Position numbers and translations under genes: made by a program. From Nemertoderma westbladi (taxonomy: Eukaryota; Animalia; Xenacoelomorpha): DNA of 64,000 nucleotides. Numbering within the stretch: position 1 is the stretch's first letter; every line of letters begins with the position of its first letter. This document shows positions 1 through 28,144 of this stretch, in pieces. The stretch is taken from the NCBI GenBank assembly GCA_032718475.1, contig JAUCBJ010008889.1:1-64000 (forward strand). Reading direction: 5' to 3'. The notes beneath the pieces are model-generated. The model made no database searches and was not told the DNA's origin. It saw only the letters and a program-made list of their open reading frames with translations.

Positions 1-792
1 ATCTTCACTGATTTTAATCACATATAAAAGGAACACAGACTGACTCATGTAGGGTCTATCAAATAACATTAGATTCACTTCAAACCACTTTAACATAAGT
101 CACAATCGTTATTGGTAACCTTTCTCTCTTACCTTCGGTATATCAAGAATATTGGGTGTCGGGGTTATTTCTCGTTATTCCAATATAATAATTCATCAAC
201 AAATATAATGAATAACCGATAACAAATAGCAGTACAGTATTGACAGATCAATCGGGCCAGTTGTTTTGAGTTAAGACAATCAATCAGTCATCAGGTGCGT
301 TTGGTCAGCCGCCAGGTCAGTTTTGTTTGATCATCAGTCAGTTAAAGGATATATGTCCTTATAATTAAACCTCCTAGTGTTGAGCTAAAAAGCAGAAAGC
401 ATAAAACACTACAAAGCCGTTCTTTCGTGGCTTTGAAAAACTCGTGACTACTGCTCTATACGAGGATACCAACTCCCTTATTCCACGAAGCTCCCGTTCA
501 ACACAGAGAAAGAGCAGTGAGATAGGAAATTTTCAGTTCAGTACTCTGTGATAGGTCAACATCAAGGATAACTCAAATTCTATTGGGAGATACAAAACAA
601 GGCTATGACGCAACCTCCCTAGGCTTGTTGGCCGATTAAACAGAGCCCAGATGCCTGCGTACAGCAAATCAGCCAATAAGCTGGTAACTTGCACTATTTT
701 TAGCTGTAGATCACTTTGAGAGTATTCTTAGCGACTGGGGGGGAACTGGCCAACAAGGCAAACGAATCAGTTATCCCACAAAAGCTTTTACA
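1..792 (-). mobile_element. LTR of a sister BEL/Pao family (runs off the window start)
   Basis: The minus strand starts TGTAAAAGCTTTT at 792, versus TGTAAAGGCTTTT at 10142. The reverse complement of 1-225 aligns closely to 10635-10855, and 340-390 aligns to 10538-10584 of the main LTR. Confidence 0.85.
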
Positions 793-2882: not shown

Positions 2883-5800
2883 TTAGCAAACAGTTGCACG
2901 TAATTTAAATGCATGAAAAATATATCGCGCAATATTCAAAACTTTAGTAGGATCGTCAGTTTGCATTAATTCAATAAATTTTAAAAAATTCGGGAAAACC
3001 ATATATCTCATACCCAAGTATCTGCACCGCAGGCTGTGATAAAAAGTGCAACCTAATAGAAAATGGTACTCGTCTTCTACTAAATTACAATCGCACATAT
3101 TGCAAATTCGCTGGTCCCTAGCTATACCGTACAAAAAACCGGCGCAACGCTAAATGATTACTCAATACGTAAATGTAAGTAGAGGGTTTGAATATTTCCT
3201 TTATATAAAATCTTCCTTTTGGGGACGATGCTACTTCTGATCTCCAAAATTGCACAAACTGATCAGTGATACGTTGCTTTACATTGAATAGAAAAGTGTT
3301 AACACTATCACCTACATCCTGATTTTGCCAAGCCCAACTAAATCCTAAATCATTTAGTATTCCTCTTAATTGCACAACCCAACTTTTTGGCGTTAAATGA
3401 CTTACTACTATCTAGTACGTTATTCAAATCATTGCACAACATTAAATAAGCCTGTTTCACCAACCTAGTATTTGGTAGATTAATAATTCTGGTCCAATAC
3501 TTAACTAATCTGAATCGACGTTCGAAAATAAGTTGTAATTGACCTGTCTCTCCATATACTGCAAAATTTGGAGTTGTTTTTTTTAACACCCAGAAAATTT
3601 TTCAGAAACCGTAAGTGTACCCTTTCTACATCATCAGCTGTATCAAAACCCCAAATTTCAGCACCGTACATTAAAATAGGTTTCACTAAAGTGTTGAATA
3701 AATTTATAGCACAATCGAAAGTAGAATGGGGAAATCGTACAAAGTATTTTAGTAAAGAAAAATATGCTCTACTACCTTGTTCTGCAATGTTACTTTGAGC
3801 AATATAAAATTTTCCAGATACCGTGAAGATAATACCTAAATATGTATACTGATTAATTTTTGGCATCACTTTGTTATTGTAGTAAAATTGCACCGCCGAT
3901 GGACGACCTTTGTGACCAAAAACAACAACATTAGATTTATCTAAGTTTACTTCCAAGCACCAATATTTACAATAAAATTCTAGAATTATTAGGGATTGCT
4001 GTAAAGCTGACTCAGTCTCTGCCAATATAACGATGTCGTCAGCAAATAGCAATAAGAATAATTTCATCGTACCAACATCTATACCTTCAATGCCACCTTG
4101 TCTTAATTCGTTTTCCAAATCATTAATAAAAATACTGAACAAAAAGGGTGATAAGCTCTCACCTTGTCTTACTCCTATAGATACTAAAAATGTTTCTGAC
4201 AATTTACCATCTACTTTTACACATGACTTTACACTACTATACATATTCTTAATAACATTTAGCATTTTGCCACCCGCACCTAAATTGATTAATTTCAACC
4301 ATAAAGCTGCACGACTAACTGAATCGAATGCCTTTTTCAGGTCAATAAAAGCACAATATAATTTTTTCTTACGAGTTAACAAAAAGTGATCAATAAGCGC
4401 ACGTAAAACAAACATTTGGTCAACTGTAGAAAACCCTGCTCGAAAACCACCCTGGGCTTCAACTACAATACCATAACAATTTGCCCACCATTGTAAACGA
4501 CTATTAATAACGGATGTGAATAATTGACCCAAAATTGACAACAGAGTTATTCCCCTATAGTTACCGGGATCCGACTTTTTCCCCTTTTTAAACAATGGAC
4601 ATATAATTCCAATTGTCCAATCTCGTGGAAAATTGCCCGAATCCAAAATAGCACTAAATAATAATGTTAACACCGGTACTAACTGATCCCGACCTTCAAT
4701 AATAAATTCACTAATAATATTGTCTACACCTGGAGATTTACCGCGCTTTAACTTATTAATAGCGTTATTTACTTCTACTTCATCAAATGGCATACTCAAA
4801 TCATTCTCAAAACAATTTCTACTTTCAATTATATTAACATTTCTACCTACGTAACTACTACAATTCCTTCCCAAATCCTGAAAATTTGAATTGTTTGAAC
4901 TAAGTCGCTCGAAATATTGTTTAAACTCATTAATAGATGGTTCATTTGCCCCTCTCGGAATAGCAACCCGGCAAATAGATTTCAATTTTTTCCAAAACTT
5001 TTTCGGGTCTGACACACGTGCCAGGTTCAGGCGCTGCGCTTCATTTCTCGAATATTCAAATCGGGTTTTACGCAGGGTTGCTTTATATTGAGCACGGCTC
5101 CTTTGAAGTAAGGAATACGCTTCAGGTGCTCCAGAACTTTTCCAATTAGACAACGCACTATTAAAAGCCAACTTTACATCCCTACATTCTAAATTAAACC
5201 AAATTGCACCATTACAAAAGGAATTAACATTACCTTGTTCGTTATCAGTTCGATGTAATGATAAAATTTCTGCCTGACGATCGAATATATCCGAAAGGTT
5301 CCCCACCGCAGCGTCTAAATTTTGCAGTGGAAAATTAACATCGGAGATAATTAGGTCGCCAATGTTCTGCAGCTCGTTTATCATATTTGCATCTTTCATA
5401 TTCGCATTAAATTGCTGTTTAACTCTATCGTTCCAAAAATAACGGTTTACTGGAGTACCCTCAACATGTATGTTACTAGCATCGGGTTCAGTAGCATTTG
5501 GCTCGAGAAATGTTTGCACTTCTAATTTAAATGAAATTGTACAGTGGTGACTATAAATATTTGGGATACCAATAGAAAAATCTGTACAATGCCCCATCAT
5601 TGGTACTGTGCCTAGTACATAATCAATTGTAGAAGAACCATTGCCAGAACGAAAAGTAAAATCACCACAGGCTTCGTCATTCCCTAGCCTTCCATTAAAA
5701 ATGCGTAGGCCAGTGTTTTTACATAGGGTTAATAATGTTGTACCATAGGCATTTACCTTTTTATCAAAATTATTTCTATCGGTATTTATACAATAATAAA

Positions 5801-6512
5801 TAAATTCATTTTCATCATCAACCTGGTCACCAATAAGTGATTCATCACAATGTGTAATCATCCCGCCATTGATTACAATATAATCGCATCCTTTAGCCGT
5901 TCTGGCATTTAAATCACCAATAACTAGTATATATGCACTGTCCCAATAAAATGCCAACCCTCTTTCAATATCATCAAATAAGTCAATTGCACTGTTGTTG
6001 TGGCTAGTGGAATTGTACGGCGCTATATATGCACAACAAAAAATAAGATCCCTTTCTAAACCTAAACATTGTTTATCTAGTTTTAACCATATAATATCTT
6101 CTACACTGAAATCATTTAGATTGGTTACGTGTGGTTCTAGATCAATTTTAAAATATACCAGCACTCCACCACTGAAGCGTTTTGCACTACGATGTTTCTT
6201 ATTCCGACACACCTTAAAATAATTATATCCCCCTATATCTAAGTTTAGTAACCCATATGGAGCTAACCAAGTTTCCGTACATATAAAAATATCGTGTGCT
6301 CGCACGAGTTTATGAAAATCAACATCTGCTAGTGCTGAACTAATACCTTCAACATTTAAATGTCCTACGTTAAGTGATCTAGTAATTGCAGGTTCATCAG
6401 AAACGGAAAGTGTAATATTAGTAGTTATATTATTGTTTACCAAGTTTTGTGATCGATCATCATCATTCGAGTTTAAACTTGAGAGCCCGAACTGATTAGT
6501 TTGGCACCTCAA
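2883..6512 (-). pseudogene. LINE ORF2 (APE-RT), with about three frameshifts in the C-terminal part (~3580, ~3360, ~3135)
   Basis: APE motifs: GHLNVEG, CTETW, GDLNART, TIDYV. RT motifs: NYRGITLL, FIDLKKAFD, GVRQGESLSP, LLFADD, YTYLG. The C-terminal RICNMC..EDEYHFLLGC lies in fragment 2883-3134. Confidence 0.9.
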
Positions 6513-7255
6513 CCGTTGGGTTGTGGATCACACGTTCCGGGGTGCCCTTCTCCCGTCTCATTGGCTGGCTGATCGAGAGAGCCTTCCTCCGGCTCATTGG
6601 CTGGCTGATCGAGTGAGCCTTCTTCTTCACCCAGCACGTCGAACACGTTGTGAAGATGCAAACTAGAGACCTGAGAACCCTCTTGAGGTCTACCAGCAGT
6701 ATCATCAGAACCAGACAGAGGTTGTGAGTATTTGCCGGGAATTATTATCCATTCGGGATTTGAAGGAGTAGAATTCAGTGATCGTTGAAGCTGAACTGTA
6801 ATTGGCGTCTGCGCCCCAGCATTTTCAACCGTCTCAGATTGTATAATACCCTGTTGTTGATATTCTGTGACATCCATTTCAGCCTCGCAGATTGACTCTT
6901 CAATGTGCACGAGCGGATCCATTTCTATAGTAGACCTGGTGACCGAAGAAGAGGACACAGTTGTGCTCGTTGGCGCGGGCGTAGTGGGCGCGGGCTGCCC
7001 CATAGTGGGTGCGGGCTGCCTCATGCGTTGAGTGGGCAGAACTGTAGTAGTAGGCGCGGATGGCCCTGAAGTGGGCGCGGGCGGCCCCGTGCGTTGCATG
7101 GGCGGCCTTGTAGTCGGCGCGGGCGGCCCCGTGCGTTGCATGGGCGTCCTTGCAGTAAACGCGGGCGGCCTTGCAGTGAACGCGGGCGGCCCCGTGCGCT
7201 GCATTATAAGCATAATGCATTTAGGGGTTGGGATTACTCTCTCAGACCTAAGCAA
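6509..7255 (-). CDS. Probable LINE ORF1 C-terminal remnant, Pro/Thr-rich with internal MQRTGPPAPT repeats
   Basis: It abuts and overlaps the ORF2 start on the same strand and has low-complexity repeats. No domain recognised. Confidence 0.5.
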   Translation of the reverse strand: MLRSERVIPTPKCIMLIMQRTGPPAFTARPPAFTARTPMQRTGPPAPTTRPPMQRTGPPAPTSGPSAPTTTVLPTQRMRQPAPTMGQPAPTTPAPTSTTVSSSSVTRSTIEMDPLVHIEESICEAEMDVTEYQQQGIIQSETVENAGAQTPITVQLQRSLNSTPSNPEWIIIPGKYSQPLSGSDDTAGRPQEGSQVSSLHLHNVFDVLGEEEGSLDQPANEPEEGSLDQPANETGEGHPGTCDPQPNG

Positions 7256-7840
7256 ACCAGTTCAATGTGGAGGGAACCAACTACACTACGTTTGTCTATG
7301 GGATGTCTTTTTATCGCCAGCTTGCTGACTTTTCTAGTTAATAATTAATAAATAGGGCTGCCTTTGATGTATTGTAATGTAATAGGTTTGGCCATGGACT
7401 TCTAGAATATTAATTAATACCAGGACTGGAAACTGTTTATTCGGAAATACCAGTTGAGGCCTACTTTCTGGTTTTTGCTAACAGTTATTTATTTTAGGAA
7501 TCATCATATCTAAACCGCTACCGTTTGAGTTTTTCTGAAAGGAATTTAATAATTTATGTTGGATTAGATGCCCAGATTTCTCAGTTTTAATTATGTATAT
7601 AAAATAACCCTTTTATCTGTTAATAATAATAATAATAAAAACAATTTATATAGCGCCAAATTTACATTTTAATAATCTAAGGCGTTGAAACAACAGTATC
7701 GTTCACATTACGTAGTCAAACAACTTAGAATAAAATAAACTATATCTAAAATTTTGTAAAACATGTTTAAAAATTGTGTTAAAATATTCGGTTCAGTTAA
7801 AACAATTCCGAATTCAAATTACTGGGAACAAAACAAGGAA

Positions 7841-9998: not shown

Positions 9999-10141
9999 TA
10001 AGTAACTTTAAAGGAATGATACATTATTGATATTAACTTTAAAGAAGTCAATCATTTAATAATAGATAAAACGAAACAGTAAAAAATAAATTGAACTGCA
10101 GGATTTTACTGGAGTACGAATTGCAGACATATTGGCATATC

Positions 10142-11284
10142 TGTAAAGGCTTTTGCGTAATTAGCCGGTTATTTTCCCCGTAAAGTACTCTGTAGTTGGT
10201 TTAACCGGCATAAAAGGCCGTGTCCTTACTGTATTGTTGTTTTAGAGGACATAAAAGCCATTTCTTCTGTATGTGTACTTTAGCGGACATGATTAGCAAT
10301 TCTATGACGCAATAAGCCGGATCCTCTTGAAACAGTGTAGATACCATGACGACGGCTAACAGCTGATATTGCCACGTAGAACATCTCTTTGTTCTTTGTT
10401 CTCTCTTTGTTCGGTCGACCAATCAGAGCGTTTTTTGCCTCTGTGTTGGAGATGGTATATAGAAACTAGGGAAGTGAGTCAGTATATGATTTCTTCCACA
10501 GCCTACAACACCGGCGTGGAACCTCTGTGTTTCAGTCTTTAGCTTAACATTAGTAGGCTTAATTATAGAGCGTATATCCGTTATCAAACCATATCAATTC
10601 TTATCACACTAACTTACTTAACATTACTGCTTTGCTGTCGGTTATTCATTATATTTGTTGATGAAATATTATATTCGGAATACTGATAAACAATCAGACA
10701 CCCCAATCTTCTTGATATACTAAAGGTTAGAGAGACCGGATACATATAACGATTGCGACTTACATTAAGTGGTTTGAAGTGAATCTAATGCTATTTTATA
10801 GGCCCTATACGTATTGTCTGTTGTTCTCCTTATATGTGACTAAAATTAGTGAAGGTCGGCAGATTAGAGTGCAGTATTGTGCAGCATTGTGTATGATTGT
10901 GATTGATAACGAAGCATCTCCTAAAGAATGCGCCATATACGTGAATCTATAGCCATCCCGTTGCGTCTGGTTTAAGCCATAACTCTGTTTATATATTTAG
11001 AGCGCCACGTCCTAAAGGAACTGTTAATATTTCCCGAAAGTGAATAATATTGTCAGAGATTTATATATCAAGATCAGTCGAATAATACAGTAGGTCTATC
11101 CCGCAATACGATTAGGCTTCCGAATCCAGTCTCCCGGGTATATCCAGCGGGTGAATGATCGCGCATAGACTGGTTTCGGCTAATGTAGTGTATCAAACAT
11201 TTGTCGTAGGCTAAAGACTATCTATTATCTAGAAGACATCCTAATTTGGCAGGTTAAACTGCTAAAGGTCTGAAAGCGCGAACA
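10142..11284 (+). repeat. 5' LTR (1143 bp)
   Basis: TGTAAAGG...GCGCGAACA. The end is defined by the same GCGCGAACA abutting the TSD at 28144. Confidence 0.92.
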
Positions 11285-11296
11285 ATAACGGATATA
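11285..11296 (+). promoter_or_regulatory. Non-tRNA primer-binding site ATAACGGATATA, complementary to LTR 10573-10584
   Basis: It lies directly after the LTR end, lacks the TGG start of a tRNA PBS, and is the exact reverse complement of TATATCCGTTAT at 10573-10584. Confidence 0.65.
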
Positions 11297-11633
11297 AAGT
11301 TCGGATTGCAGGGTAGGCAATAAATACAGTTTAATATTGTTCTGGTAAGAACAATAACGGATATTGCTTCTGTATTGCAGTAGGCAATAAAGCTGAAGTA
11401 CCGGCAACCGGTACCCAGTAGGCCTGACTACCTAACCACCCGGACCGGTACCTACAGCAGTACAGGTACAGCAGTATTATTCGATTTTGATTATTATATA
11501 CCAGTAGGCCTTAATTTAAAATCAGGGAGGGCCCGCCCTGGTTTTTTATTGAGATTTTACTTATTTCTGTCAAGTTTTATTTATTTGTAGGCCAATATTG
11601 ACCAGAAGGCGTGTAAGCCTGCTCAGATTGTAC

Positions 11634-12213
11634 AGATAATTTGTAGCCTTGACTGTTGTCTAACTGTTGTTAAGTCTGAACGGATTGCAGTGTGTGTAGA
11701 GCATCTGTCTGATAAAGTGCTAGTTAGGAATGTAGGGGCTTCAAATGCTGTGAGGTAAACCCCCTTTGAAAGAATAAGTCGTACTACTAGGTTAGAACGC
11801 ATACTAACTAATCATTTCGGAGTCTGCATATACTATAGTTTATTTAGGCTTGATAGTAGTCTGCCATCGTTTGGTCTGTACTTTGTTTGTGTAGTCTGTA
11901 CAGGTAGCGTATAATTCTTATTTAGATAATTTGTAGGCTGGATAGTTGTCTGGCTGTTGTTAGGTCTGAGGAAATTTCGGTGTGTGTAGAGTGTATGTCC
12001 GATAAAGTGCCAGTTGGGAACGTAGGGGCTTCCAGCGCTGTGAGGTAAACCCCCTCTGAAAGAATAAGTCGTACTACTAGGTTAGAACGCATACTAACTA
12101 ACCATTTCGGAGTCTGCATATACCGTAGTTTGTTTAGGCTTGATAGTAGTCTGTCAGTATTTGGTCTGCATTTTGTTTGAGTAGTCTGTACGCGTAGCGT
12201 AATATTTATTATT
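11634..12213 (+). repeat. Diverged ~290-bp tandem duplication in the BEL 5' leader
   Basis: AGATAATTTGTAG...GTAGCGT occurs at 11634 and 11924. Confidence 0.9.
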
Positions 12214-13555
12214 CAGAGTTTATGCTATTATTCGCAACATTCATATCCCCAAGTTTATTCCTACAGTAATTGTGCTTGTTATACATACCGTTATAGTTAA
12301 ACTAACCCCGGTACTACATCAGGGCTGCTTGGCGTAGGTAAAGACTGGAGATTTTATGCTTTGGTCACTCCGGCAGATACCGTGGTTCTTTTAGCTGTTC
12401 AAGTATTTTTAACTACTGATTATTTGTTGTACAAGTACTTGTACCTAATTTAGGGTTTAGTGTACAGTGCTTTCCGAAGGTAATTATCGTGTAGGCAGCA
12501 TATTTGTGTTGTAAAGTGGTTAATAGGCACGTTGGTTCTGGTAGACCGTGGTAATTAACTTCTGGGTAGGAACACTCCGTGATACATAATGTAGTACTTA
12601 TAGCGATATGGCTATAAGTCGTCAGACGGTGGTATTTTCCTATCTGGACAACGCAGTATATTTACTACTACTTATTATTTTCAAATACCGTAGTACCCTG
12701 TCCGTAGTAATAACCAGATATTCTAACCCTTTGTTAGGCTGGTTAGTAGACTTCTTGTAAAATTACCCTAAAAATTCGTATTTGTGTATTTGTAATTTTT
12801 TTTTTGTGTTTATTTAGAGATTGTAATCTCAACCCGAATTGTACGTAATTTGTAGTATTAAGTAACTTAGGTAAATTAGAATTATTTGTTTTAGTGTCCA
12901 ACAAGTAGCACTTCACTGAGAGCGCACCGCTTCTGTGTAGTGACTCCCCCCAGAAATAATAACATTTATTTCAAATATTGACAAAACCCATTTTAACGGG
13001 TATATATATTATAAATCAACTCTAAGATTTATAAATGGTAGGCCTGCCATACAACAATTAGGTCTAAATATCAGTTGGACTACTGCTTAAATAACGGTAA
13101 TAAAGTAAGTTAAAGTAACCAAGTAACCCCTACAAATTCAGAAATTCAATTATTTAAAATAATTGACATACCAGTATTTACCATAGGCTTATTATATTTA
13201 TTTCTATAAATTTAGGCTGAAATTATACCGGTATTCTGTAATTAATTCTAGTCTGTAATTATACTTATATATATACACTATAAGTGTAAGCTGTATACCG
13301 GTTTTCACGATAGGCCTATTATATATTTATATATATTTGTGCTGGAATTACATACCGGTATCCTGTGACAAACCTAGTCTGTAATAATACTTATATATAT
13401 ACTATAAGCATACCGGTATTCTAATATATTATATATATATCACGCTACACTGAGTAGCAGTATCGGTAATTAATTACTAGGCTAACAGTGATACTGAATT
13501 ACTAGACTTGCTTAAACTGTAATATAGCAGTAGGCATTCAACTGTACAAACCAAC

Positions 13556-16500
13556 ATGTCTGACACAAAGCAAAATCTGTCAGACAGTCTCCTAGATACA
13601 ACCATATGTGACCTAGACAGGAGTGTGGAACGTGTTAAACAGAAGTTCAACTCACCTCCTACTGTAAGAAAGATCATTCCCCCAGTAGTAATATCAGAAC
13701 CCAGGCTGGTCCAACACCGTAGATCTATCATAGGCACTAGAGCTCAGGTCAAGCGGGACCAAGAAGCAGCGGAACAACAACAACTCACGAGCCAAGAACT
13801 TATTTCTCAACGGTCCGACAGCTCCAGTAGTGAGGATACTGTAGAGCTGACACCCGAGCGCGGAGCAAAGATGACGGATGCGGTTTATTCGGATCCCCTT
13901 CTCATCCTTCCTGCAGCCGTACTCACTAGGTTATTGATTGTGGTGGAAGAACACCAGATCGATTGGGCGAGAAGTAAGCGATCGACTAAAGATAGTTATG
14001 CGGGATATACAAGGGAAGAACTTAAGTCTATTGTCGAGTCGCAATGGAACTTCCCCGGACCCGGACTCCCGTTTGATTTATCAGAAGCTGCCTGGGAAGA
14101 TATACACAGGATGGGAGTAACCAAGGAAACCGTCGATCCAGCTGTGTGGAAGAGGTCCGCAGCCGGATACGTACAGGGATTCGTAAGCTCTATGGAGCGA
14201 GTAGAAAAACAACTGTTTCAACAACCCCAAGGACCTCAAGAGCAGGGACAACTGCTTTATCAAGTTAGAGAAAGAATTCTACGAATCAGGCTAATCTTAT
14301 CAGCCTTTGAGGAGGCTTCTAAAAGAAGACAAGACACGTCGTTGCAAGTTGCCGTAAAGACTTGGTTTCAACGGGTGAGCCTCCAGGTGCAGGGAACGAC
14401 TCAGTGGAAAGCCCAACTGGAAGAGCGCTCAACCCATGGAGAATCAACAGACGCTACTTTTTCCCAAGTGGAAAGTGAAGCGACGGCAGAGAAGCCGCAT
14501 AAGAGGGATGCCATTGACATCTATCTGTCGGACTATCAACGTTTTGTAGGAGATGAAGAGTTGAGGAGAAGACTAGAGGGGCTTAGCCCTAATAGTGAAG
14601 GAGCCCAGCGTGTGTTGGACGCAATCGATGTGGATAGGTTAGCTGCGAACCAAGCTAAATTCAATGAAAGCATCCGCATTGCTAAGGTTCAAGAAGAACA
14701 AGTAAAGAAAAAACGTATAGAAGACAGAAAGATAGCAGCAGTGGCAGCAGCAGTGGCAGCGGCAGAAGCGGAAAGAAAGGCTGTAGAAGCGGAAAGAAAA
14801 GCAGCCGAAGTGGAAAGAAAAGCAGCAGTGGCAGCGGCAGAAGCGGAAAGAAAGGCTGTAGAAGCGGAAATAAAAGCAGCCAAAGTGGAAAGAAAAGCGG
14901 CAGCGGCAGAGGCAGAAGCGGAAAGAAAAGCAGCCGAAGTGGAAAGAAAAGCGGCAGAGGCAGTGGCAGAAGCAGAACGAAAGGCGTCTGAAGAGACTGC
15001 CCAACTAGAGTTGGAAAATCTTCAAGAGAAGCAAGACAACTTTAATAAACAGTTAACAGCTAGTAATATGCAGATGATGAATCGATCTACTCCCAAAAGG
15101 CAAGGTTATACATCATCTGAGGAAGGCAATACCACAGATCAGGAAGGCGGAGGAAATCGATCTCGCCTAAGCAGACGTAAAAGAATGTCCCACCGTCAGA
15201 AATTGCCTGATTTGCCCCCAGCTGTTCGAAGGCAACTAAATAACACAAATTTAGGTAGTACAGAACCCACAGACCAAATAATTAAAATAGAAAGACTCCC
15301 TACTATAGTAGATGAGCCTGAAATAATTAGGCCTGTTCTTGAAATCACCCCTTCGGTGATAGAGACACCTGTACTCCCAGAACCTACCTTTAAATTCCCT
15401 TTACACAGCACCAAATTATCTGTGCCTAGAGGAACAGCCCCTGAAACAGTGTCGGTCCTGGACTCCAAGCGAAATATAAAGGATATATCGCCCGTAGTCC
15501 CTCGTCTGCCCGCTACGACGTTAGCGGATCCTGCTTCGGCGGTTGATTGGGTAGACGAGAGACGGCGGGGGATGGATATTCTCCTCGGAAAGATGGAGGA
15601 GAATCGAGTGCGCTCCTCCCAACAGGTCCGAGAGTTAGAAGGGACTGTTCAACAGTTAAAGGGAACCGTAAAGGAAAGTAGGTTAGAGTTGCAAGAAGTG
15701 CAGCAAAGTATCGCGCTAGAACGCGATAAATTAGCAAATTTACAAAAGGGTATACCACCACCCCCGGTAACAATGTGTCAACCTGTTAGGTCTGAAGTAT
15801 CTCATGCGCAAGGTGTGGAGCCTACACGCATATATACTGCTAGCGAAGTAGAAACTCCTATAGTGAACCCTATTAAGGGTAATTATAGACCTGTTGATAA
15901 TGATATTCCCTATAGACCTGATCATAATCCGAGAAATTTATATACCGATAACTCGATATTGAATAACACGATGGCCCAAGAAAGTTTTACGTGTCAAATG
16001 GCTAGAACCGAAGCCCGGCAAGCGGTAAAGGTGGGAGAGATCGTCAAGTTCAATGGAGATGAGATGAAATGGTTACCTTTTAATGAATATTACAAAGATA
16101 ACATACAGAACTCTGTACTATCTAATGGAGAGAAACTTAGATTCCTCATCGAGTGCTTGGAAGGATCTCCCAAGTTAATGGCGTTAAAGTTTATTGGACA
16201 TCCAGACGGATTAAGACAAGTTTGGGATACACTGAACATCAGGTATGGTAATAGGAATAACATAGCTAAATATTTGTATGCAAAATTAGTAGCGCCCCGA
16301 AAGTTCATTAGCAGCGGGATAATAGAGTTTTCCGATGAGATTCAGGAGATCTGTAGACAATTAGATTGGTTAGGTAAGTCTCATGAATATCAGAGTTCTA
16401 TGGTTATTGGAGCCGTGGCCTCTACTTTACCGAAGGGTGGAGTAGGTACACGCTGGGATAAGAAAGTGTTATATATGATGGAACAACAACAACGAGACCC

Positions 16501-17092
16501 TACCATGGCTGATCTCATGTCATTCTTGGATGGCGAAGTGAAATTACAGCTCATAAAGCAGTCCAGAGAGAAGACACCGGAAAACAAGGTAAGTGAGAAA
16601 CCCGTCTCTAGGAGAAAGGTAACACCAGTGTGTTATACAGACGGCGGCGAAAGCCAGACTTCTCAAGGAGAGGATAGCAGGAAAGACACTGAAAGATCTT
16701 ATTATGTCAATAAAACGCCTAAAGAACCGGTAAGTAAATTCAAGTCTCGAACCAATGACAGGAGAGAACAGGTAAGAAAAACTCCTCCTACGTCTCCCAA
16801 GAGAATTCAGGTGAGAAAGCCCGAAGAAAGAACGAGTGTGCACAATGTTATTCAAAATAAGGTAAGTAACATCAAACCGAAATGTGCGCTATGTGACGGG
16901 ACTCACCGTTTGAATATGTGTGATGAATTCCTGAAGAAATCATTAGCGGAGAGACGGGAAGTCATGTGGGATAAGCGTTTGTGTTATAATTGCCTCAGAC
17001 AAGGACACCAACGGCGAACCTGTTACTCCGACACAAGGTGTGCAAAGTGCGGTGCGAAACATCATATCTTGTTGCACACTGAATTCGAGTGA
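13556..17092 (+). CDS. gag: BEL/Pao Gag, 1178 aa, with a long N-terminal extension and coiled-coil repeat
   Basis: DUF1759-like KFNGDEMKWLPF..LSNGEKLRFLIECLEG; BEL-type triple knuckle CALCDGTHRLNMC / CYNCLRQGHQRRTC / CAKCGAKHHILLH. Confidence 0.93.
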   Translation: MSDTKQNLSDSLLDTTICDLDRSVERVKQKFNSPPTVRKIIPPVVISEPRLVQHRRSIIGTRAQVKRDQEAAEQQQLTSQELISQRSDSSSSEDTVELTPERGAKMTDAVYSDPLLILPAAVLTRLLIVVEEHQIDWARSKRSTKDSYAGYTREELKSIVESQWNFPGPGLPFDLSEAAWEDIHRMGVTKETVDPAVWKRSAAGYVQGFVSSMERVEKQLFQQPQGPQEQGQLLYQVRERILRIRLILSAFEEASKRRQDTSLQVAVKTWFQRVSLQVQGTTQWKAQLEERSTHGESTDATFSQVESEATAEKPHKRDAIDIYLSDYQRFVGDEELRRRLEGLSPNSEGAQRVLDAIDVDRLAANQAKFNESIRIAKVQEEQVKKKRIEDRKIAAVAAAVAAAEAERKAVEAERKAAEVERKAAVAAAEAERKAVEAEIKAAKVERKAAAAEAEAERKAAEVERKAAEAVAEAERKASEETAQLELENLQEKQDNFNKQLTASNMQMMNRSTPKRQGYTSSEEGNTTDQEGGGNRSRLSRRKRMSHRQKLPDLPPAVRRQLNNTNLGSTEPTDQIIKIERLPTIVDEPEIIRPVLEITPSVIETPVLPEPTFKFPLHSTKLSVPRGTAPETVSVLDSKRNIKDISPVVPRLPATTLADPASAVDWVDERRRGMDILLGKMEENRVRSSQQVRELEGTVQQLKGTVKESRLELQEVQQSIALERDKLANLQKGIPPPPVTMCQPVRSEVSHAQGVEPTRIYTASEVETPIVNPIKGNYRPVDNDIPYRPDHNPRNLYTDNSILNNTMAQESFTCQMARTEARQAVKVGEIVKFNGDEMKWLPFNEYYKDNIQNSVLSNGEKLRFLIECLEGSPKLMALKFIGHPDGLRQVWDTLNIRYGNRNNIAKYLYAKLVAPRKFISSGIIEFSDEIQEICRQLDWLGKSHEYQSSMVIGAVASTLPKGGVGTRWDKKVLYMMEQQQRDPTMADLMSFLDGEVKLQLIKQSREKTPENKVSEKPVSRRKVTPVCYTDGGESQTSQGEDSRKDTERSYYVNKTPKEPVSKFKSRTNDRREQVRKTPPTSPKRIQVRKPEERTSVHNVIQNKVSNIKPKCALCDGTHRLNMCDEFLKKSLAERREVMWDKRLCYNCLRQGHQRRTCYSDTRCAKCGAKHHILLHTEFE
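14735..14990 (+). repeat. Coding minisatellite in gag (AAEAERKA / AAEVERKA)
   Basis: GCAGAAGCGGAAAGAAAGGC-like units repeated in frame. Confidence 0.9.
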
Positions 17093-17252
17093 AATAGTCC
17101 GAGTCAGGTAAGTGATTCCGAACTACATGTCCAATTCAGTGATGTGAACGACACTGATCAATCTGAGATGGAAGGATTCTATACGGACGAGTTCTCCGAT
17201 GAAAACGAATCCTGTTACATGATAAATACCGCAGTGTATCGAGCACTCACGT

Positions 17253-20200
17253 ATGAAAAAGATACAGACAGCACACCTCACCCTAACTACTTCTGATCGA
17301 CAACCATCTTGGAAAGCGCCATCTTCCAATGTAGGAATCCGAGCATTTCCTGTAGTACAGGTAAGGGTCCACGGACCTAAAAGGAGTTATGTAGTGAACG
17401 CCCTCCTTGACTCCGGTAGTACAGGAACATTCATCGACAAAGAACTAGCCGAAGACATCTTTGCTGGACAACCCAAGTTCCGAACTAAGCTAAACATGTC
17501 AGGAATTATGCAGGTTTGGAAATCTACAGTAATTGCGGATTATTATGTAGGTGCGTTGTCCACCCCCCAGGATGAACTAGGAGAACATAGTATAAGGTCA
17601 GTAAAAATGGTGGCGATAAAGAACTTCACTACCACCCAAGTGGAACCTTATAACTGGGATGAGGACGATTTCACCCAGCAGCTGGAAATACCTAGATTCA
17701 ACACCGATTACCCTGGAGTGCAAATACTCATCGGTCAAAACGCGCATGAAGCGCTCGAGACATTGGAGAAACGGCCCGCTCAACCGCGACCACTACAAGC
17801 TTATGCGGGAAGAACTAGAGTGGGTTGGTACTTTACTGGCCCTTCCCGTAGAACTCTCATGGAAAGATTACCGAAAGACCAGGTATGTCAAGTGAGAGAA
17901 TGGGAAGTCGAGGGCAGTGAGTTAGATGATCTAACTGAGGGAACACCATACTCCTCAGATAATGACGATGTCCACCAACTTTTCGATGAGGAGAACACCA
18001 TCGATCTCCTTAAGGAAAACGAGACTTGGCAAAACCAAGTGAACTTATGTCAGCTCCTTCTTCCATCAGAACGAGACGACTATAACGACGAACTTAATGA
18101 CGTCATTGAACGATATAATGCCAAGACTCGGGATGAACATGCCGTACGATTCTTTACTCAAGAGGCTGTAGAGCCCAATTCCTACGATAAGGCCCTATCG
18201 GTAGAGGAAGAAAGAGGCAAGCAGATCCAAGAGACAACTACACGTTTTCTTAAAGATCAAGGTAGATATGAGATCGGTTTACCTTTCCGAAAGCGAGAAC
18301 CAAAGTTCGTAAACAACAGACCCTTGGCGGAGAAAAGAATTGCTCAACTACATCGACGCCTTACGGCAAATTCTTCAGCTAAAGAAATGTATCAAACGCA
18401 GTTGAAGAAGTTTATTAGCAAGGGATATGCGGAGCTAGTACCGGAAGAAACACCTATAACTGAGAGAACGTATTATTTAACTCACCATTACGTTCCCAAA
18501 CCCGGTAAACCACATGAGGTACGGGTGGTGTTTGACGGCTCCGCCCTCTATATGGGCCAATCCCTTAATTCTGAATTGCTACCCGGACCCAACTTACTCC
18601 AATCATTGTTGGGAATACTTTTAAGATTAAGACAATATTCCATTGCTTTCGCCTCAGATATAGAAGGCATGTTCTTACAAGTCAAAGCGCTGGATAGGGA
18701 TCGAGACAGCCTACGATTTCTGTGGTGGCCTGAAGGAGACCTCAATCAGAAACCGGTGGAGTACTGGATGACCATCCAGGCTTTTGGGATAATCTCGAGC
18801 CCTTCAAACGCCTGTTCCGTGGTGCGCACCACTGCGGATGACAACCGAGACGCCTTCTCTAAAGAGGTGATTGACAACATTAAGCGGGATATATACATGG
18901 ACGACAATCTAAAGTCCCTTCCATCAGTCGAAGAAGCCATCGATGTCGCTAAAGGAACGGTAGAGTGCTTAAAAAGAGGTGGATTTCGATTAACTAAATT
19001 CACCAGCAACTCCCGTGAGTTTCTGGAGTCGATCCCGGTAGAAGATCGAGGAGCAAAAGACCTGGATCTAATAAAAGATGATCTCCCAGAAACTAAGACC
19101 CTTGGTTTGAAATGGGACACCGAAAGAGATATCCTGTTTTTCCAACTAAAACAGCGAGATAATCCAGTTCGGACTAAACGGATTTGTTTAAGTATCCTGA
19201 GCACTTATTTCGATCCATTGGGATTTATTAGCCCAGTTATATTGATTGCTCGGAGTCTAGTACAACAAATGTGGCTTGAAAACCACTCATGGGACGATCC
19301 ACTTAAGGGAGAATTATTAAAGAAGTGGATGAAATGGGAAGATTCTCTACCAGCCATCGAGAACTTTATAATTTCCCGTTCATATTTTGGTCATGTTCTC
19401 CCTACGTATTCCTATCAACTCCATGTGTTTGGAGACGCCAGCGATATGGGAATAGGTATAGTAGCCTACCTAAGGGAGGAAACTCCGGACGGAATCAAAG
19501 TCGCCTTGGTTACTTCTAAGACATTGATAAACAATAAGTTGAAAGTTCCTCGAGCGGAGTTAAAAGCGGCTCTATACGCTACAGCCATCGGCCGGAATGT
19601 AACAGAACAGATCGACTATCCACTGGAGAAAACTGTATATTGGACCGACGCTTTACTCGTGTTGGAGTATATAACCAATGAAGTCTGTCAGTTCAGCGTC
19701 TTCGTTACCAACAGAGTAGCCATTATACTCAGTCGCACAACGATGGATCAATGGAGACATTGCCCCGGAACGATTAATCCAGCAGACATCGCCTCCAGGG
19801 GAGCAACTCCACAAGAACTGGTAGACACTCCAGACTGGTTAGGTGGACCCGACTTCCTCTACAAAGAAGAAGAAGAATGGCCTCCTTATCTTACTACAGC
19901 AGAGATTAGACAGGCCAAGGGAGCGGAGAAAGTCAAACCTAAAACTCGGGCGAGTAAATCGAAGTTATTCAAACCCATGGTAGATCTGTCTGTACTACAT
20001 ATTTCCGGAGACGACGCTTTGGATCAGAAATCCACAGCCACAAATAAACTTGTTGTGGAAATCCGTGAGAAGGATTGGAAATCTGGAATACCAGACGTCT
20101 CGCAAGGACTCTCACCTCTTCTGCAGAGAGCGATACATCACTACAGTTCCTGGAATCGGCTCTGTAAGGCCGTTACATATTTAAAGAGATGTTTTCACCA

Positions 20201-21671
20201 TCACTACTCCGGGATGAAGGCCAAAGGTGATACCGTTCCAATAACATCAGTGCAGGTCCATGTTATTAAAGATCTTCCCAAATATAAGATACCCGACAGG
20301 TTTCTGAAGGAGAAGATCAGTTATCAGGAGCATGAAGAAACCAACAAGCAGATGCTGAGACTCCTGCAATGCTATGAGGATTCCGATAAGTATTTCCTGT
20401 TGTTGAGAAATCCACAGATGCGCTTAAGGGATCGTTTCTCTAGCACAATGATAGATGGGTTGATACGTGTTGGAGGAAGATTAACGAATGCTCCACTATC
20501 CTTTGACACTAAGTTTCCCATACTCATTAGAAATCTTGAAATACAAGTCAAGATGATTGTAGACGTTCACAGCAAACTTTATCATGCTGGTAGGGAACGA
20601 GTTCTTAGCGAAATTCGAACTCGCTATTATTTTTATAAACCTCGTAGAGCTCTGAACCAAGTTCTTAGGAACTGCATACCCTGTAGGAAAGCATTCAGTA
20701 GGCCTTTAACACAGCGAGAGGCAGAATTACCTAGGGAACGAGTAAGCTTCTATGAACCACCCTTTACTAATACCGGTGTGGATTTATTTGGCCCTATTGA
20801 AGTATATCGTGCTAGGACTATAGTCAAGAGATGGTGTGTCATCTTTGTTTGTATGACTTGTAGAGCTATCCATCTCGACATGGTGAACGATTTATCTACC
20901 AACAGCTTTCTATTAAGCTTACGACGACAGATCGCTCGCTTTGGCACTAGTAACACGATGAGATCTGATAAGGGAACAAACTTCATTGGTGCCAACAATG
21001 AAATCAAAGCTTACGTCAAAGATTGGAACCAAAGACAGGTGGACGATCAGCTACGAGTAACAGCGTCTAGCTGGACCTTCAACGCCGCCGACGCCCCTTG
21101 GTGGGGAGGAAGTTGGGAGAGATTAATAAGAAGTGTGAAGACAGCATTTCACTTTATAGTGCCTTGCCGCGCGTATCTCACCGACGAACTTTTGCGGACG
21201 TTAATGGAGGAAATCGCCGCCTATCTCAACGAGAGACTGCTTATGCCAGTCTCATCGAGTCCCGATTCCCTGGAAGCGCTAACACCCGCGCATTTCCTAC
21301 TAAAGAAACCTGTAGCCATGCTCCCACAATCGGAAATCACAGACGGAGACGAATACTGCCGGCAAACTTGGCAACTCATGCAGTTGTTATCCTGTCGTTT
21401 CGCTGATCATTTTGAAAAACATCATCTGCCCATGCTACAACTTCGAACTAAGTGGTTTGCGCAGCAAGAAAACGTCAGCGCTGGAGACATGGTTCTTATT
21501 GTGGATGTAGATCTTCCACGTAAGCGGTGGCAGACAGGTCGTATCATCGAGACTCACATCTCTGATGATGGTTTGGTGCGATCGGTAGAACTCGTCGTCA
21601 TGCGACGTAACTTCAAGAAACCGGGAATTGTCTTCGAGACGCAGCAGCTCAATCGCCCAGTTGGTACCTAA
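17253..21671 (+). CDS. pol: BEL/Pao Pol (protease, RT, RNase H, integrase)
   Basis: ALLDSGST (PR); RVVFDGS, SDIEGMFLQ, YMDD (RT); HVFGDAS, PRAEL, WTDA (RH); H-H..CIPC, GVDLFGP, RSDKGTNF, WERLIRSVK (IN). Confidence 0.97.
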   Translation: MKKIQTAHLTLTTSDRQPSWKAPSSNVGIRAFPVVQVRVHGPKRSYVVNALLDSGSTGTFIDKELAEDIFAGQPKFRTKLNMSGIMQVWKSTVIADYYVGALSTPQDELGEHSIRSVKMVAIKNFTTTQVEPYNWDEDDFTQQLEIPRFNTDYPGVQILIGQNAHEALETLEKRPAQPRPLQAYAGRTRVGWYFTGPSRRTLMERLPKDQVCQVREWEVEGSELDDLTEGTPYSSDNDDVHQLFDEENTIDLLKENETWQNQVNLCQLLLPSERDDYNDELNDVIERYNAKTRDEHAVRFFTQEAVEPNSYDKALSVEEERGKQIQETTTRFLKDQGRYEIGLPFRKREPKFVNNRPLAEKRIAQLHRRLTANSSAKEMYQTQLKKFISKGYAELVPEETPITERTYYLTHHYVPKPGKPHEVRVVFDGSALYMGQSLNSELLPGPNLLQSLLGILLRLRQYSIAFASDIEGMFLQVKALDRDRDSLRFLWWPEGDLNQKPVEYWMTIQAFGIISSPSNACSVVRTTADDNRDAFSKEVIDNIKRDIYMDDNLKSLPSVEEAIDVAKGTVECLKRGGFRLTKFTSNSREFLESIPVEDRGAKDLDLIKDDLPETKTLGLKWDTERDILFFQLKQRDNPVRTKRICLSILSTYFDPLGFISPVILIARSLVQQMWLENHSWDDPLKGELLKKWMKWEDSLPAIENFIISRSYFGHVLPTYSYQLHVFGDASDMGIGIVAYLREETPDGIKVALVTSKTLINNKLKVPRAELKAALYATAIGRNVTEQIDYPLEKTVYWTDALLVLEYITNEVCQFSVFVTNRVAIILSRTTMDQWRHCPGTINPADIASRGATPQELVDTPDWLGGPDFLYKEEEEWPPYLTTAEIRQAKGAEKVKPKTRASKSKLFKPMVDLSVLHISGDDALDQKSTATNKLVVEIREKDWKSGIPDVSQGLSPLLQRAIHHYSSWNRLCKAVTYLKRCFHHHYSGMKAKGDTVPITSVQVHVIKDLPKYKIPDRFLKEKISYQEHEETNKQMLRLLQCYEDSDKYFLLLRNPQMRLRDRFSSTMIDGLIRVGGRLTNAPLSFDTKFPILIRNLEIQVKMIVDVHSKLYHAGRERVLSEIRTRYYFYKPRRALNQVLRNCIPCRKAFSRPLTQREAELPRERVSFYEPPFTNTGVDLFGPIEVYRARTIVKRWCVIFVCMTCRAIHLDMVNDLSTNSFLLSLRRQIARFGTSNTMRSDKGTNFIGANNEIKAYVKDWNQRQVDDQLRVTASSWTFNAADAPWWGGSWERLIRSVKTAFHFIVPCRAYLTDELLRTLMEEIAAYLNERLLMPVSSSPDSLEALTPAHFLLKKPVAMLPQSEITDGDEYCRQTWQLMQLLSCRFADHFEKHHLPMLQLRTKWFAQQENVSAGDMVLIVDVDLPRKRWQTGRIIETHISDDGLVRSVELVVMRRNFKKPGIVFETQQLNRPVGT

Positions 21672-23380
21672 AGAGGTGAGGTCTCTATAGGGGTGCCAAC
21701 AACAGGCGGCGGCGGACTCGTGAGAGTCCGGGGGCACGTTAAAATGGGGCGATAAGTGCAAGGGAGATACTGAAGGCCCTCGTGTCTAGCGAACCATGAA
21801 TTGACATGGTGCCGTGGTACCGTCTAGTCGGCCTGTTGCCGTACTGCCAGTCCTGTACACAGTAGGGGTGGTGGCATAGTGTGATCTGTGGTTTGTGTGT
21901 GGACGATCAGTGGCAGTTTGCTTGAGCTTTCTGTTGCTGTGGGTACGTGGTATATGTGAGTGTATGTATGGCCACTGCGAGTGAGTATGGGAACCCTTGC
22001 CGGTTGGTTTAGTCGCCGCTGGTATTAGTAGGACCATATCTTTACTGCGCCCCAGCATACTTTGTGCACACAAAGTTATTTTGCCCTGACGGCAAAATAA
22101 GATACTCTCGACTCTTTTATTAGTCGATACAATTTTGTCCCCTCTGATTTTGTCACCGATTTTGTCTTTCCCGATTATGTCCTCTGTGTGTGCATGGTAT
22201 GTGTCTGATTTTGTGTTTACCTTTTGTGTACTTGATTATCGAACATCTGTTCAGTACACGTGTACAGTGACTGGTAAGTGGTGACTTGTTCAGTAGCTTT
22301 TTAGCTACAGACAGTATTGTCTTTCTAATACTGCCGGCGAGGCGGGTGAAAACGGTCAATATTCCATGTTGGGTAGCGCAAGCCCACTTGGGACAAGACC
22401 GTCGGTTTGGCTCAAGGGCGACCTTGATGCTCGATCGCTATCGACTGGTCCATCCGCCGGTTGACTCTCTGAGTTGGCTCAATGTACAGTCAGGCCACAG
22501 TAAGTTAACAGTAGGCGATCATTGGAGCATGGATCGGCTACATCGACGAGCTGTGCCGGTGTGATCGGGGGATTGAAAATTGAACCCGGGAAGCATCGGG
22601 CTACCCTCCGGCCCAGTCTGATAAAAACGGAGTCGGACTGGCCCCAAGGGTGGTGGGACAGCGTCCGCCTCATGGGTGCGCCTCGGAGTCATCAGAGAGG
22701 AGCCCAGAAGGACGCAAGCGCGCTTATGTTTACTGGAAAGAGACAGAGAACTCTCCGGAAACTATGGGAGACAAGATACTCTTCCCACGACCACCTCCCT
22801 ACTCCAACAAACATCTAGGGACTCCCCAGCTTGGTAGCATATGGAGTGAGCGTGTGACCATATTATTTTATATTCTTATTATTTTATATTTATGTATGTA
22901 TTATTATGTAATTTTATTATAATCGTTTTATTTAATTTTATTTAGTAGCATGTTATTTTAGCGATTATTTAGTAGATTAGTGCAATATATTCGCGTTTAT
23001 TACGTAATTACTTATATTATATATTTAGTGCGACGGCGAGAAACAATTCTTTTTCTCTTTCCTTACTGCCTGTATTACATTACGAATACGTAACTACAGT
23101 AAGATGAAATGTCCGTACTTATTAAAGTACAATAAAGCCACTACTATATTCAAGTATTATTGGTAGGCAGAGTATTAGGAATGCAAAGTTCAGATCCTCG
23201 TGTCTCGGCTAAACCAAGCTCTGGGTAGACCTTGGAAACGACTTGCCTCTTCACACTGACATTGCTTCGTGCGATATTGCTCTCATACCGTATATTAAAT
23301 AATACATATAGTAGCGTGATGTCCCTTTAACAGTAGCGTATAACGCAAAATAAATCTGTTAAACCCTTTGACCATCTGCA

Positions 23381-23690
23381 ATTCTAGTCGATTAAGATAT
23401 CGCGGCACCCACCGATATACTTGAAAGACAAAATTCTAGAATCAGTGGTTAACGTCCCCAGACAAGTTCTGGAATAAACTGGTGCCTATCCTAAATATTA
23501 ATTATTAATATTTACAAAATCTGTCAAATTTTAGATCCTTTAACATTCTAGTCGATTAAGATATCGTAGCACTTACCGATACTCTTAAAAAGACAAAATT
23601 CCTAGAATCAAGGATCCCAGTCCCCAGACACGTTCTGGAATAAAATTACGTCTATTTAACATTAAATAATAAAATTTACGGGAATAAATT
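23381..23690 (+). repeat. ~165-bp diverged tandem duplication in the BEL 3' region
   Basis: ATTCTAGTCGATTAAGATATCG...GTTCTGGAATAAA occurs at 23381 and 23546. Confidence 0.85.
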
Positions 23691-24454
23691 TAAATTCATA
23701 TATTTCAATGAATTTAATAAATTGTCATTTTATACAATTTATAACATTCCCAAAATTCCATTAATTAATAGATCATGGGAGTGGAGATTCACTCTATTAA
23801 GTGTATTTGTGTGCGAGAATCTCCAATATATAGTCAATACCCGATAAAATTCATAAAATCATATATAGAGAGGATATTGACAATTAAAGAATTACTATTA
23901 AATAGCATCCCAGATCTGTATGCATGAGAATTACCCTAATTCTACCGCTAGCTTTCCATAATGTCACCATGGCAACAACCACGCTAGAATTAGAAGTGAG
24001 TTAAAAGAACAATAAAGGGCTTGCGCATTGAATAGCATACGGAATAAATAGCACACCGCTAGTATCCAAGGATACATAATAACAACGTGACATTCTGGAA
24101 GGCACTTGACTAACGGACAAATGACCCGAATGTGTGATAGAATGTGTACCATTTGTGACAGTTACGTGGAATTTGTGCATTTGTAGGTGAATGTTACTAC
24201 TAAGGTGTGTTTACAGTAGCGAGTCGCAATTGTGAAAGTAGCCCTAACTCTCCAGTAAGAACCTGAAGTATATCTAAGCCTTTGGGACGGACGGTGGAGT
24301 GACTTGTGCTGGTTGTTGTAGTCGTTGTGCAGCTACGACGTTGGCGATAGGCACATCGGCGAAAGTACACCAGCGCTGAGGATCTCGCACTGTCCGGGGG
24401 CAGAGAGGGGTAGGCAGCGACGCCCGCTCGCCTAAATATAAACTCATTATAATA

Positions 24455-26050: not shown

Positions 26051-26068
26051 ACTTAAATCCCATTTTCT

Positions 26069-26076
26069 GGGAGCGG
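26069..26076 (+). promoter_or_regulatory. Polypurine tract (GGGAGCGG)
   Basis: Purine-rich run directly before the TG of the 3' LTR. Confidence 0.7.
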
Positions 26077-27219: not shown

Positions 27220-28144
27220 ATAACGGATATAAAGTTCGGATTGCAGGGTAGGCAATAAATACAGTTTAATATTGTTCTGGTAAGAACAATAACGGATATT
27301 GCTTCTGTATTGCAGTAGGCAATAAAGCTGAAGTACCGGCAACCGGTACCCAGTAGGCCTGACTACCTAACCACCCGGACCGGTACCTACAGCAGTACAG
27401 GTACAGCAGTATTATTCGATTTTGATTATTATATACCAGTAGGCCTTAATTTAAAATCAGGGAGGGCCCGCCCTGGTTTTTTATTGAGATTTTACTTATT
27501 TCTGTCAAGTTTTATTTATTTGTAGGCCAATATTGACCAGAAGGCGTGTAAGCCTGCTCAGATTGTACAGATAATTTGTAGCCTTGACTGTTGTCTAACT
27601 GTTGTTAAGTCTGAACGGATTGCAGTGTGTGTAGAGCATCTGTCTGATAAAGTGCTAGTTAGGAATGTAGGGGCTTCAAATGCTGTGAGGTAAACCCCCT
27701 TTGAAAGAATAAGTCGTACTACTAGGTTAGAACGCATACTAACTAATCATTTCGGAGTCTGCATATACTATAGTTTATTTAGGCTTGATAGTAGTCTGCC
27801 ATCGTTTGGTCTGTACTTTGTTTGTGTAGTCTGTACAGGTAGCGTATAATTCTTATTTAGATAATTTGTAGGCTGGATAGTTGTCTGGCTGTTGTTAGGT
27901 CTGAGGAAATTTCGGTGTGTGTAGATATATTATATATCAAGATCAGTCGAATAATACAGTAGGTCTATCCCGCAATACGATTAGGCTTCCGAATCCAGTC
28001 TCCCGGGTATATCCAGCGGGTGAATGATCGCGCATAGACTGGTTTCGGCTAATGTAGTGTATCAAACATTTGTCGTACTATCTATTATCTAGAAGACATC
28101 CTAATTTGGCAGGTTAAACTGCTAAAGGTCTGAAAGCGCGAACA
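27220..28144 (+). repeat. Extra copy of the 5' leader (27220-27925) plus a second U5 end (27930-28144)
   Basis: 27220-27925 equals 11285-11990. 27930-28144 equals 11061-11284 minus 9 bp (AGGCTAAAG) and is followed by the TSD. Confidence 0.92.

Follow-up and report, generated by a model that had tools for sequence, protein, structure and literature searches.

The window analysed here is a stretch of 64,000 nucleotides from Nemertoderma westbladi (contig JAUCBJ010008889.1, positions 1 to 64,000), and the two LTRs of the BEL/Pao element described below, with their features, the PBS, gag and pol, lie on the plus strand. Positions 10142–11284 hold the 5′ LTR of an integrated element, a 1143-bp repeat of the form TG...CA that has three differences from the second LTR copy at 26077–27219 (99.7% alike). 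The element is a BEL/Pao LTR retrotransposon by its protein domains, its TG...CA LTRs, the purine tract preceding the 3′ LTR and a target duplication of 5 bp around the whole insertion (10137–10141 and 28145–28149). Its gag gene (13556–17092) encodes DUF1759, and its pol gene (17226–21671) encodes Peptidase_A17, DUF5641 and Integrase_H2C2; a Pfam domain search of the polyprotein gave no match to a chromodomain. The closest homologues of these proteins are BEL/Pao polyproteins with 38–45% identity and the same Pfam families, the named ones coming from marine invertebrates. The 4.4-kb gap between pol and the 3′ LTR (21672–26076) contains two short overlapping open reading frames (24683–25605) with no Pfam match. 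The region 10142–28149 is a tandem insertion within one target duplication, made up of an LTR, the internal part, an LTR, a leader of about 700 nt and the last 215 nt of an LTR (27930–28144); tandem copies with a common LTR are known for Tf1/Tf2, according to the accessible text of PMC11042837.

A fragment of a second LTR family, referred to here as family 2, lies on the minus strand at positions 1–792, truncated by the window edge, and carries a primer-like 13-mer at 353–341. Between the two LTR families there is a LINE with endonuclease and RT domains (3501–7261, minus strand). Elsewhere in the window, a 20-nt near-palindromic unit forms two inverted arrays (45627–45947 and 53311–53571), which are 7.4 kb apart and are possibly the ends of a DNA transposon. 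In four DNA runs of organism A, the LTR of the BEL/Pao element is covered by thousands of contigs with many variants, which points to a large element family. Exact LTR patterns had zero matches in viral, metagenome and prokaryote collections, and a search of viral contigs by RT alignment found no relative of the element.

The primer-binding site (PBS, 11285–11296) adjoins the LTR (offset 0) and has no TGG. All 12 of its positions are Watson–Crick complements of positions 10573–10584 within the LTR, a match expected 2e-4 times by chance in this LTR, and this 12-mer is therefore referred to as the putative self-primer. Self-priming has been recognised by at least 10 nt of complementarity to the element's own LTR at 0–5 nt past the LTR, as given in the available excerpt of PMC6317226; the corresponding values here are 12 of 12 nt and offset 0. 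The first five letters of the PBS (11285–11289), ATAAC, are those of the Tf1 PBS as given in the accessible part of PMC11042837, and this agreement may reflect either chance or a common cut preference. A second copy of the LTR end and PBS lies 69 nt downstream (11347–11364), with an 11-nt primer match; contigs of the X2 and X3 sets skip 69 nt at this second copy, and the sole AATAAA motifs near the LTR (11319 and 11386) fall within the 69-nt repeat.

Upstream of the primer by about 90–120 nt, the LTR has a candidate TATA box (10456–10461) and a candidate initiator-like TCAGT (10479–10483), both picked out by sequence and used to place a presumed transcription start. A candidate short intron (10474–10542), for which splicing is predicted from sequence, runs from GTGAGT to a pyrimidine tract and TAG, and its acceptor context is present in family 2 too. 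The primer is contiguous in the DNA, and the candidate intron ends 30 nt upstream of it; release of the primer by the spliceosome was considered and dropped because there is no GT after 10584. With the candidate intron removed, the joint GAA/CTT (10473/10543) would be complementary to the 6 nt after the PBS (11297–11302), a match that was noticed post hoc. The first letters of the exon after the candidate intron, CTTAAC (CTCAAC in family 2), resemble the exon-2 primer halves of the relatives described below, and the spliced joint may be left over from a primer that was once split.

The initial annotation described a large conserved RNA fold that starts at the 3′ end of this primer and is held together by four nested long-range helices. 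All four are present in the sequence, with correct coordinates and letters. H1 (10580–10587/10903–10910) has 8 of 8 Watson–Crick pairs and a mean pair probability of 0.95; H2 (10621–10630/10871–10880) has 9 of 10 pairs, with a U10624–U10877 mismatch (0.86); H3 (10635–10641/10856–10862) has seven pairs, two of them G–U (0.92); and H4 (10645–10651/10847–10853) has seven pairs, one of them G–U (0.66). These means are valid in 8 of 10 folding windows. In the two that start at 10585, H1 is gone, and in one of these (10585–11480) H2–H4 drop to about 0.1. The 5′ strands of H2, H3 and H4 occupy 10621–10651, of which the last part can alternatively join a local hairpin at 10645–10665. Beyond the four reported helices, we found further pairing at 10564–10569/10946–10951, at 10570–10577/10935–10942 and between 10579 and 10911. 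The second LTR copy has the same fold at 26515–26845.

Neither AATAAA nor ATTAAA occurs in the LTR. The predicted poly(A) hexamer is ACTAAA at 10839–10844 (ATTAAA in family 2), the best of six variant hexamers past the primer by downstream GT/TG content. It is followed by a CA at 10860–10861, the predicted cleavage site, and, 25 nt past the hexamer, by the most GT/TG-rich 50-mer of the LTR (10869–10918); hexamer, cleavage site and GU-rich element follow one another in the usual order, as set out in the available part of PMC12789967. We infer that R ends near 10861 and that the block conserved between the two families is R, so that the 3′ strands of H3, H2 and H1 (10856–10911) would coincide with the cleavage CA and the GU-rich downstream element. 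Six TGTA motifs lie in the first 200 nt of U3 (10142–10340) and none in R, and they are possible upstream poly(A) enhancers exclusive to the 3′ LTR transcript.

The energy of the reported fold is ordinary (z −0.05, with 48 of 100 shuffles as good), and three alternative boundaries gave z values from 0.0 to +0.3; the minus strand of the region folds no better (z −0.69). The mass of long-range pairs exceeded that of 59–60 of 60 shuffles when the ends were set by hand around the helices, and with LTR-defined ends the long-range pair count was matched by 4 of 70 shuffles. The proposed check against Rfam gave zero covariance-model matches at the gathering score in the window. In a lenient search of Rfam 15, one chance snoRNA match (E 0.93) fell outside the fold and no ribozyme or intron model appeared at E ≤ 5, and ARAGORN reported nothing within the fold.

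The conserved block, which is likely the R region (10625–10854), is 82% identical to family 2 (window 3–234), with long invariant runs between the two families. The enclosed part of the fold had been called the best-conserved part between the families, but 10542–10581 is similarly conserved (32 of 40 positions). The family-2 copy ends at the equivalent of 10856, and the 3′ strands of H1–H3 fall outside the comparison. On the two-family consensus, the structure conservation index (SCI) was 0.46 against a null of 0.46, with one compensatory pair against 1.7 expected, and the pair mass common to separate folds of the two families was reached by 3 of 100 nulls. Family 2 differs at 21 of 64 positions that are paired in the window copy and, less often, at 26 of 168 unpaired positions; an interior hairpin (10683–10697) is lost in family 2. 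A weakly supported arm at 10738–10841 has z values of −0.7 here and −1.6 in family 2, and its part around 10750–10825 folds in both families in a shifted register. Profile searches of the window and of 80 BEL/Pao loci turned up no further copy of the block. A coding origin of the conservation was dropped because the families differ by single-base gaps. The description as a large conserved fold is thus overstated: the sequence is conserved, while the pairs do not covary and the folding energy does not stand out from shuffles, two of the three observations named in advance as speaking against it. Runs free of AG follow the primer over 127 nt here (10569–10696, p 0.016) and over 187 nt in family 2 (359–172, p <0.0002), the latter containing five CTGAC/CTGAT motifs.

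These results bear on a reading in which no fold has been selected. The 3′ strands would be simply the GU-rich poly(A) downstream element, pairing loosely through G–U pairs with the A/C/U-rich start of R, and the block would be conserved since R and the 3′-end signals change more slowly than U3 or have been exchanged between subfamilies by template switching. We hold this reading to be a tentative one, of lesser but real probability. A fold z of about 0, an SCI equal to its null and the location of family-2 differences in predicted stems all fit it, as do the base composition of the arms (2 G in 50 nt in the 5′ arm and 14 G in 49 nt in the 3′ arm) and the coincidence of the 3′ strands with the most GT/TG-rich 50-mer just past the candidate hexamer. 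LTRs are conserved chiefly towards their 3′ end and poorly in U3, according to the accessible portion of PMC3601003. The position of the 3′ strands on the GU-rich element explains the G–U pairs and makes composition the main rival to a functional structure.

Variation among copies was read from contigs of three sets (X1–X3, two samples of organism A) for 40 of 43 variant rows, with variants unlinked within molecules. The contig depth is lowest at the linker (10585–10629) and highest at 10855–10944. C10579T, at 85–94% of depth, faces position 10911, which is A (46–63%), G or T (14–25%); A and G pair and T does not, and the letters at 10579 and 10911 change together at the population level, which argues against composition as the sole source of the pairing. 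Among the 40 of 43 variant rows, none of at least 8% falls in H3, in 10570–10577/10935–10942 or in 10904–10910. The commonest letter at 10903 (T10903C, 73–81%) breaks the innermost H1 pair, which lies beyond the primer end; T10847C (13–33%) disrupts the terminal pair of H4, T10875C (8–13%) disrupts one pair of H2, and A10664G is compatible with the local hairpin at 10645–10665. The depletion of variants in strong helices is not significant (5 of 115 against 22 of 243, p 0.08). This pattern suggests that the cores of the outer helices have been kept tolerably well, unlike their ends, H4 and the interior.

H1 overlaps the primer, as had been noted, at its last five bases (10580–10584), and the helices 10570–10577/10935–10942 and 10579–10587/10903–10911 together cover 11 of the 12 primer bases (pair probability 0.95–0.97). 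Their downstream side forms a split anti-primer (10903–10951), in which 10903–10911 and 10935–10942, with 10946–10951 in addition, pair with the primer and its flank around a hairpin at 10914–10931 (pair probabilities 0.92–0.97 for the anti-primer helices). The anti-primer starts 64 nt past the candidate hexamer, and the modelled unpaired fraction is 0.10 for the primer and 0.0 for the cleavage CA. Forcing the primer to pair with the PBS costs 0 to 2.4 kcal/mol in minimum free energy (−177.1 against −177.1, or −254.1 free against −251.7 forced).

H1 and 10570–10577/10935–10942 are nearly all Watson–Crick (16 such pairs), a two-helix match reached by 5 of 1000 shuffles in a post hoc test, which speaks against loose pairing with a GU-rich element. 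Net primer binding with hairpins allowed was equalled by 21 of 100 shuffles, the duplex of the primer with R/U5 gave p values of 0.28 and 0.55, and the cost of opening the primer is under the shuffled mean (2.75 against 4.6 kcal/mol). The statistics for this copy alone are weak (p 0.005–0.55).

Downstream, two predicted duplexes flank the PBS within 11094–11318, one between 11159–11170 and 11268–11281 and the other between 11094–11111 and 11301–11318. They resemble the side duplexes of Tf1, in which the "pretzel" consists of three duplexes, two of them besides primer:PBS (accessible text of PMC10085805), and together with primer:PBS they are predicted to share the topology of that structure. 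The best-folded part of the LTR is 11155–11284 (z −3.25, 0 of 200 shuffles), and 11222–11481 has z values of −3.9 to −5.1; the well-folded parts of the LTR surround the PBS, not the reported region.

We then compared the element with 80 BEL/Pao loci from metagenome contigs, fetched by RT alignment. In 35 of the 80 loci, the CA-adjacent PBS matches a GT...AG splice junction in the locus's own LTR over 10–15 nt, compared with 12 of 80 on the opposite strand. Ten repeat junctions and seven matches with implausible LTR geometry were dropped from the 35, locus L046 was added and L063 removed (its LTR end is not in the same copy), which left 18 families with one locus each and geometry judged by eye; these families are mutually related and several have primer letters in common. 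Taken alone, the primer outdid shuffles in pairing with the R/U5 of its own family in 5 of the 18 (Fisher 4e-5), and the comparison of own with other families gave p 5e-4. For the 25 nt ending at the primer, 6 of 18 were significant at p<0.05 (Fisher 1.2e-7) and 12 of 18 not individually so; the energy was −16.3 kcal/mol with own R/U5 and −12.3 with other families (permutation p 5e-5). An upstream control 25-mer did better than shuffles in 0 of 18 families, and the nine families unseen when the idea was formed gave a Fisher value of 9e-5. The spliced form binds better than the unspliced one in 17 of 18, to which intron composition contributes.

The primer-complementary site starts 5–64 nt past the hexamer in 11 of the 13 hexamer-bearing families, and the hexamer lies less than 100 nt from the primer in 12 of 13. 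The primer ends in AC in 16 of 18 relatives and in AT in one, AT being the ending in the window element also. Such family-specific primer complements in R/U5 speak against a purely compositional origin of the pairing. The RT of the window element sits on a long branch of a quick tree, with its placement unsure, and the window LTR has no sequence match to the loci of the 80 relatives; for these two reasons, homology of the anti-primer pairing with theirs is by position only. Three relatives (L015, L030 and L079) have a conserved GGAGC ahead of the splice donor and, in U5, a GCTCC that pairs with it, giving a second anti-primer helix as in the window. Another locus has a TGG-type PBS (L039:843-860), and tRNA priming likely persists among these relatives.

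The earlier suggestion of a priming switch gains support from the extra helices over the primer, the near-equal energy of primer:PBS pairing and the complements in distant families, with weak statistics for this copy. Our leading interpretation, to which we give about even weight, is that the outer helices form a primer-parking clamp across the R/U5 border, which gives way to a primer:PBS structure resembling that of Tf1, with RNase H making the cut. In this model, the primer (10573–10584) would pair with a split PBS look-alike (10903–10911 and 10935–10942) a short way downstream of the predicted poly(A) site, and the beginning of R would be held against the cleavage site and the GU-rich element by H2 and H3. 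Since its 3′ end lies some 330 nt upstream of the PBS, the clamp would form first as the RNA is transcribed and would keep the primer off the PBS; it may also damp use of the 5′ poly(A) site. In the particle, chaperoning by Gag would let the primer shift to the PBS; the resulting structure, which the two side duplexes would flank, has a modelled energy close to that of the clamp. The element's RT–RNase H would then cut after U10584 and extend the 3′-OH. The cut is assigned to RT–RNase H because the context of the primer end is common to relatives without a long R; Levin reportedly found in 1996 that the Tf1 cut requires RNase H. The same clamp is modelled with U3 attached, and freeing of the 3′ poly(A) site is hence not explained by the clamp model.

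The part enclosed by the clamp, about 220 nt, would then be an unusually long, sequence-conserved R that is looped out, with no established fold of its own. An unlikely alternative is that this interior acts in packaging or dimerisation of the RNA or in the export of unspliced transcripts, in the manner of the Rex response element of HTLV-1, and that the outer helices are only its closing stem. The long invariant runs and the arm around 10750–10825 that both families fold independently are consistent with it, and HTLV-1 has a structured R of more than 200 nt (available excerpts of PMC3694450 and PMC12789967). In addition, GTGAAT occurs four times in R–U5 (10779, 10941, 11040 and 11151) against 0.14 expected, and TCCTAAAG occurs twice; these repeats are possible protein-binding motifs or old duplications. 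However, the arm has modest z values in either family, no Rfam model matches, no accessory protein was identified, and the relatives, with their hexamers so close to the primer, have no room for such a domain.

An internal primer requires a cut, and the block starts 40 nt from the predicted one and keeps long invariant runs. These points would suit an unrecognised ribozyme, or a target of a host nuclease, that cuts after U10584 and leaves a 3′-OH primer, a reading that we consider highly improbable. The predicted cut is followed by a hypervariable A/C/U-rich linker (10585–10624), whose length of 40 nt compares with 106 nt in family 2, and such a change of spacing between primer end and block argues against both a ribozyme and a cleavage-positioning element, two roles put forward in the initial annotation. 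The innermost H1 pair is lost with the letter most often found at 10903, most relatives have less than 100 nt from primer to poly(A) signal, and relatives without the block have the same primer end context, which suggests a common protein enzyme; with no Rfam ribozyme or intron model matching, neither role is supported. Cleavage by small self-cleaving ribozymes gives a cyclic phosphate end in place of a 3′-OH. A more specific version, in which opening of the clamp activates a new catalytic RNA, the R block, which hydrolyses the transcript after U10584, giving a 3′-OH primer without RNase H, would likewise be a very long shot. Hammerhead, group I (P7-like GACC/GGTC) and C/D-box motifs were looked for by eye against consensus sequences and rejected, being incomplete or broken in family 2.

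The primer-parking clamp, if true, would answer how a self-primer avoids priming or being cut before packaging, and it would link the control of priming to the choice of the poly(A) site in the 5′ LTR. It specifies base pairs exactly and family by family, and the analysis as a whole makes a new large ribozyme at this locus less likely. In the literature searched, mostly outside subscription journals, we found no description of self-priming or of LTR RNA structure in BEL/Pao elements, nor of a primer-tracking decoy of the PBS in U5. A family-tracking anti-primer in self-primed BEL/Pao LTRs is what the present analysis adds.

Several known systems share features with the element. Self-priming is documented in Tf1/sushi and predicted in some Ty1/copia lineages (available excerpt of PMC6317226). 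The likeness to Tf1/Tf2/Tj1 and Tf1/sushi lies in a PBS complementary to the element's own LTR, in two further duplexes between the LTR and PBS-adjacent sequence (accessible text of PMC10085805) and in a PBS starting with ATAAC (PMC11042837, in part). Tf1/sushi elements are self-primed Ty3/gypsy chromoviruses, whereas the window element has a BEL/Pao polyprotein; their primer is the 5′ end of the RNA, whereas here it is likely internal, about 90 nt past the predicted start, and the distance of about 700 nt from primer to PBS is also unlike theirs. A competing PBS look-alike in U5 is predicted here and goes unmentioned for Tf1/sushi in the accessible parts of PMC10085805 and PMC11042837.

The BEL/Pao relatives that appear to be primed by a splice junction share with the window element a PBS without TGG, a match of 10–15 nt to the own LTR, a primer ending in A and a pyrimidine, and a complement just past the poly(A) hexamer. 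In contrast, the window primer is contiguous, the LTR is 1143 bp long against about 370–650 bp, R is about 280 nt, and RT identity is at most 45%. The PBS of tRNA-primed LTR elements is complementary to a tRNA 3′ end (TGG) or to a half-tRNA, and the TGG is absent from the window PBS. As for HIV-1 and its poly(A) hairpin and U5 primer-activation elements, local structure there governs whether the poly(A) signal is accessible or priming can start; the poly(A) hairpin is said to have been described as such a control by Klasens in 1999. HIV-1 is tRNA-primed and uses short local hairpins, whereas the long-range helix set of the window element would mask an RNA self-primer together with the downstream element. 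The Rex response element of HTLV-1, a structured long R that functions in export and in 3′-end formation, is similar in its length and its predicted end-to-end pairing beside the poly(A) site (available excerpts of PMC3694450 and PMC12789967). In HTLV-1, the AAUAAA is in U3 and is bridged by the R fold, according to the accessible text of PMC3694450, whereas the window LTR has neither AATAAA nor ATTAAA, its candidate hexamer lies inside the fold, and its poly(A) site would be covered, not bridged.
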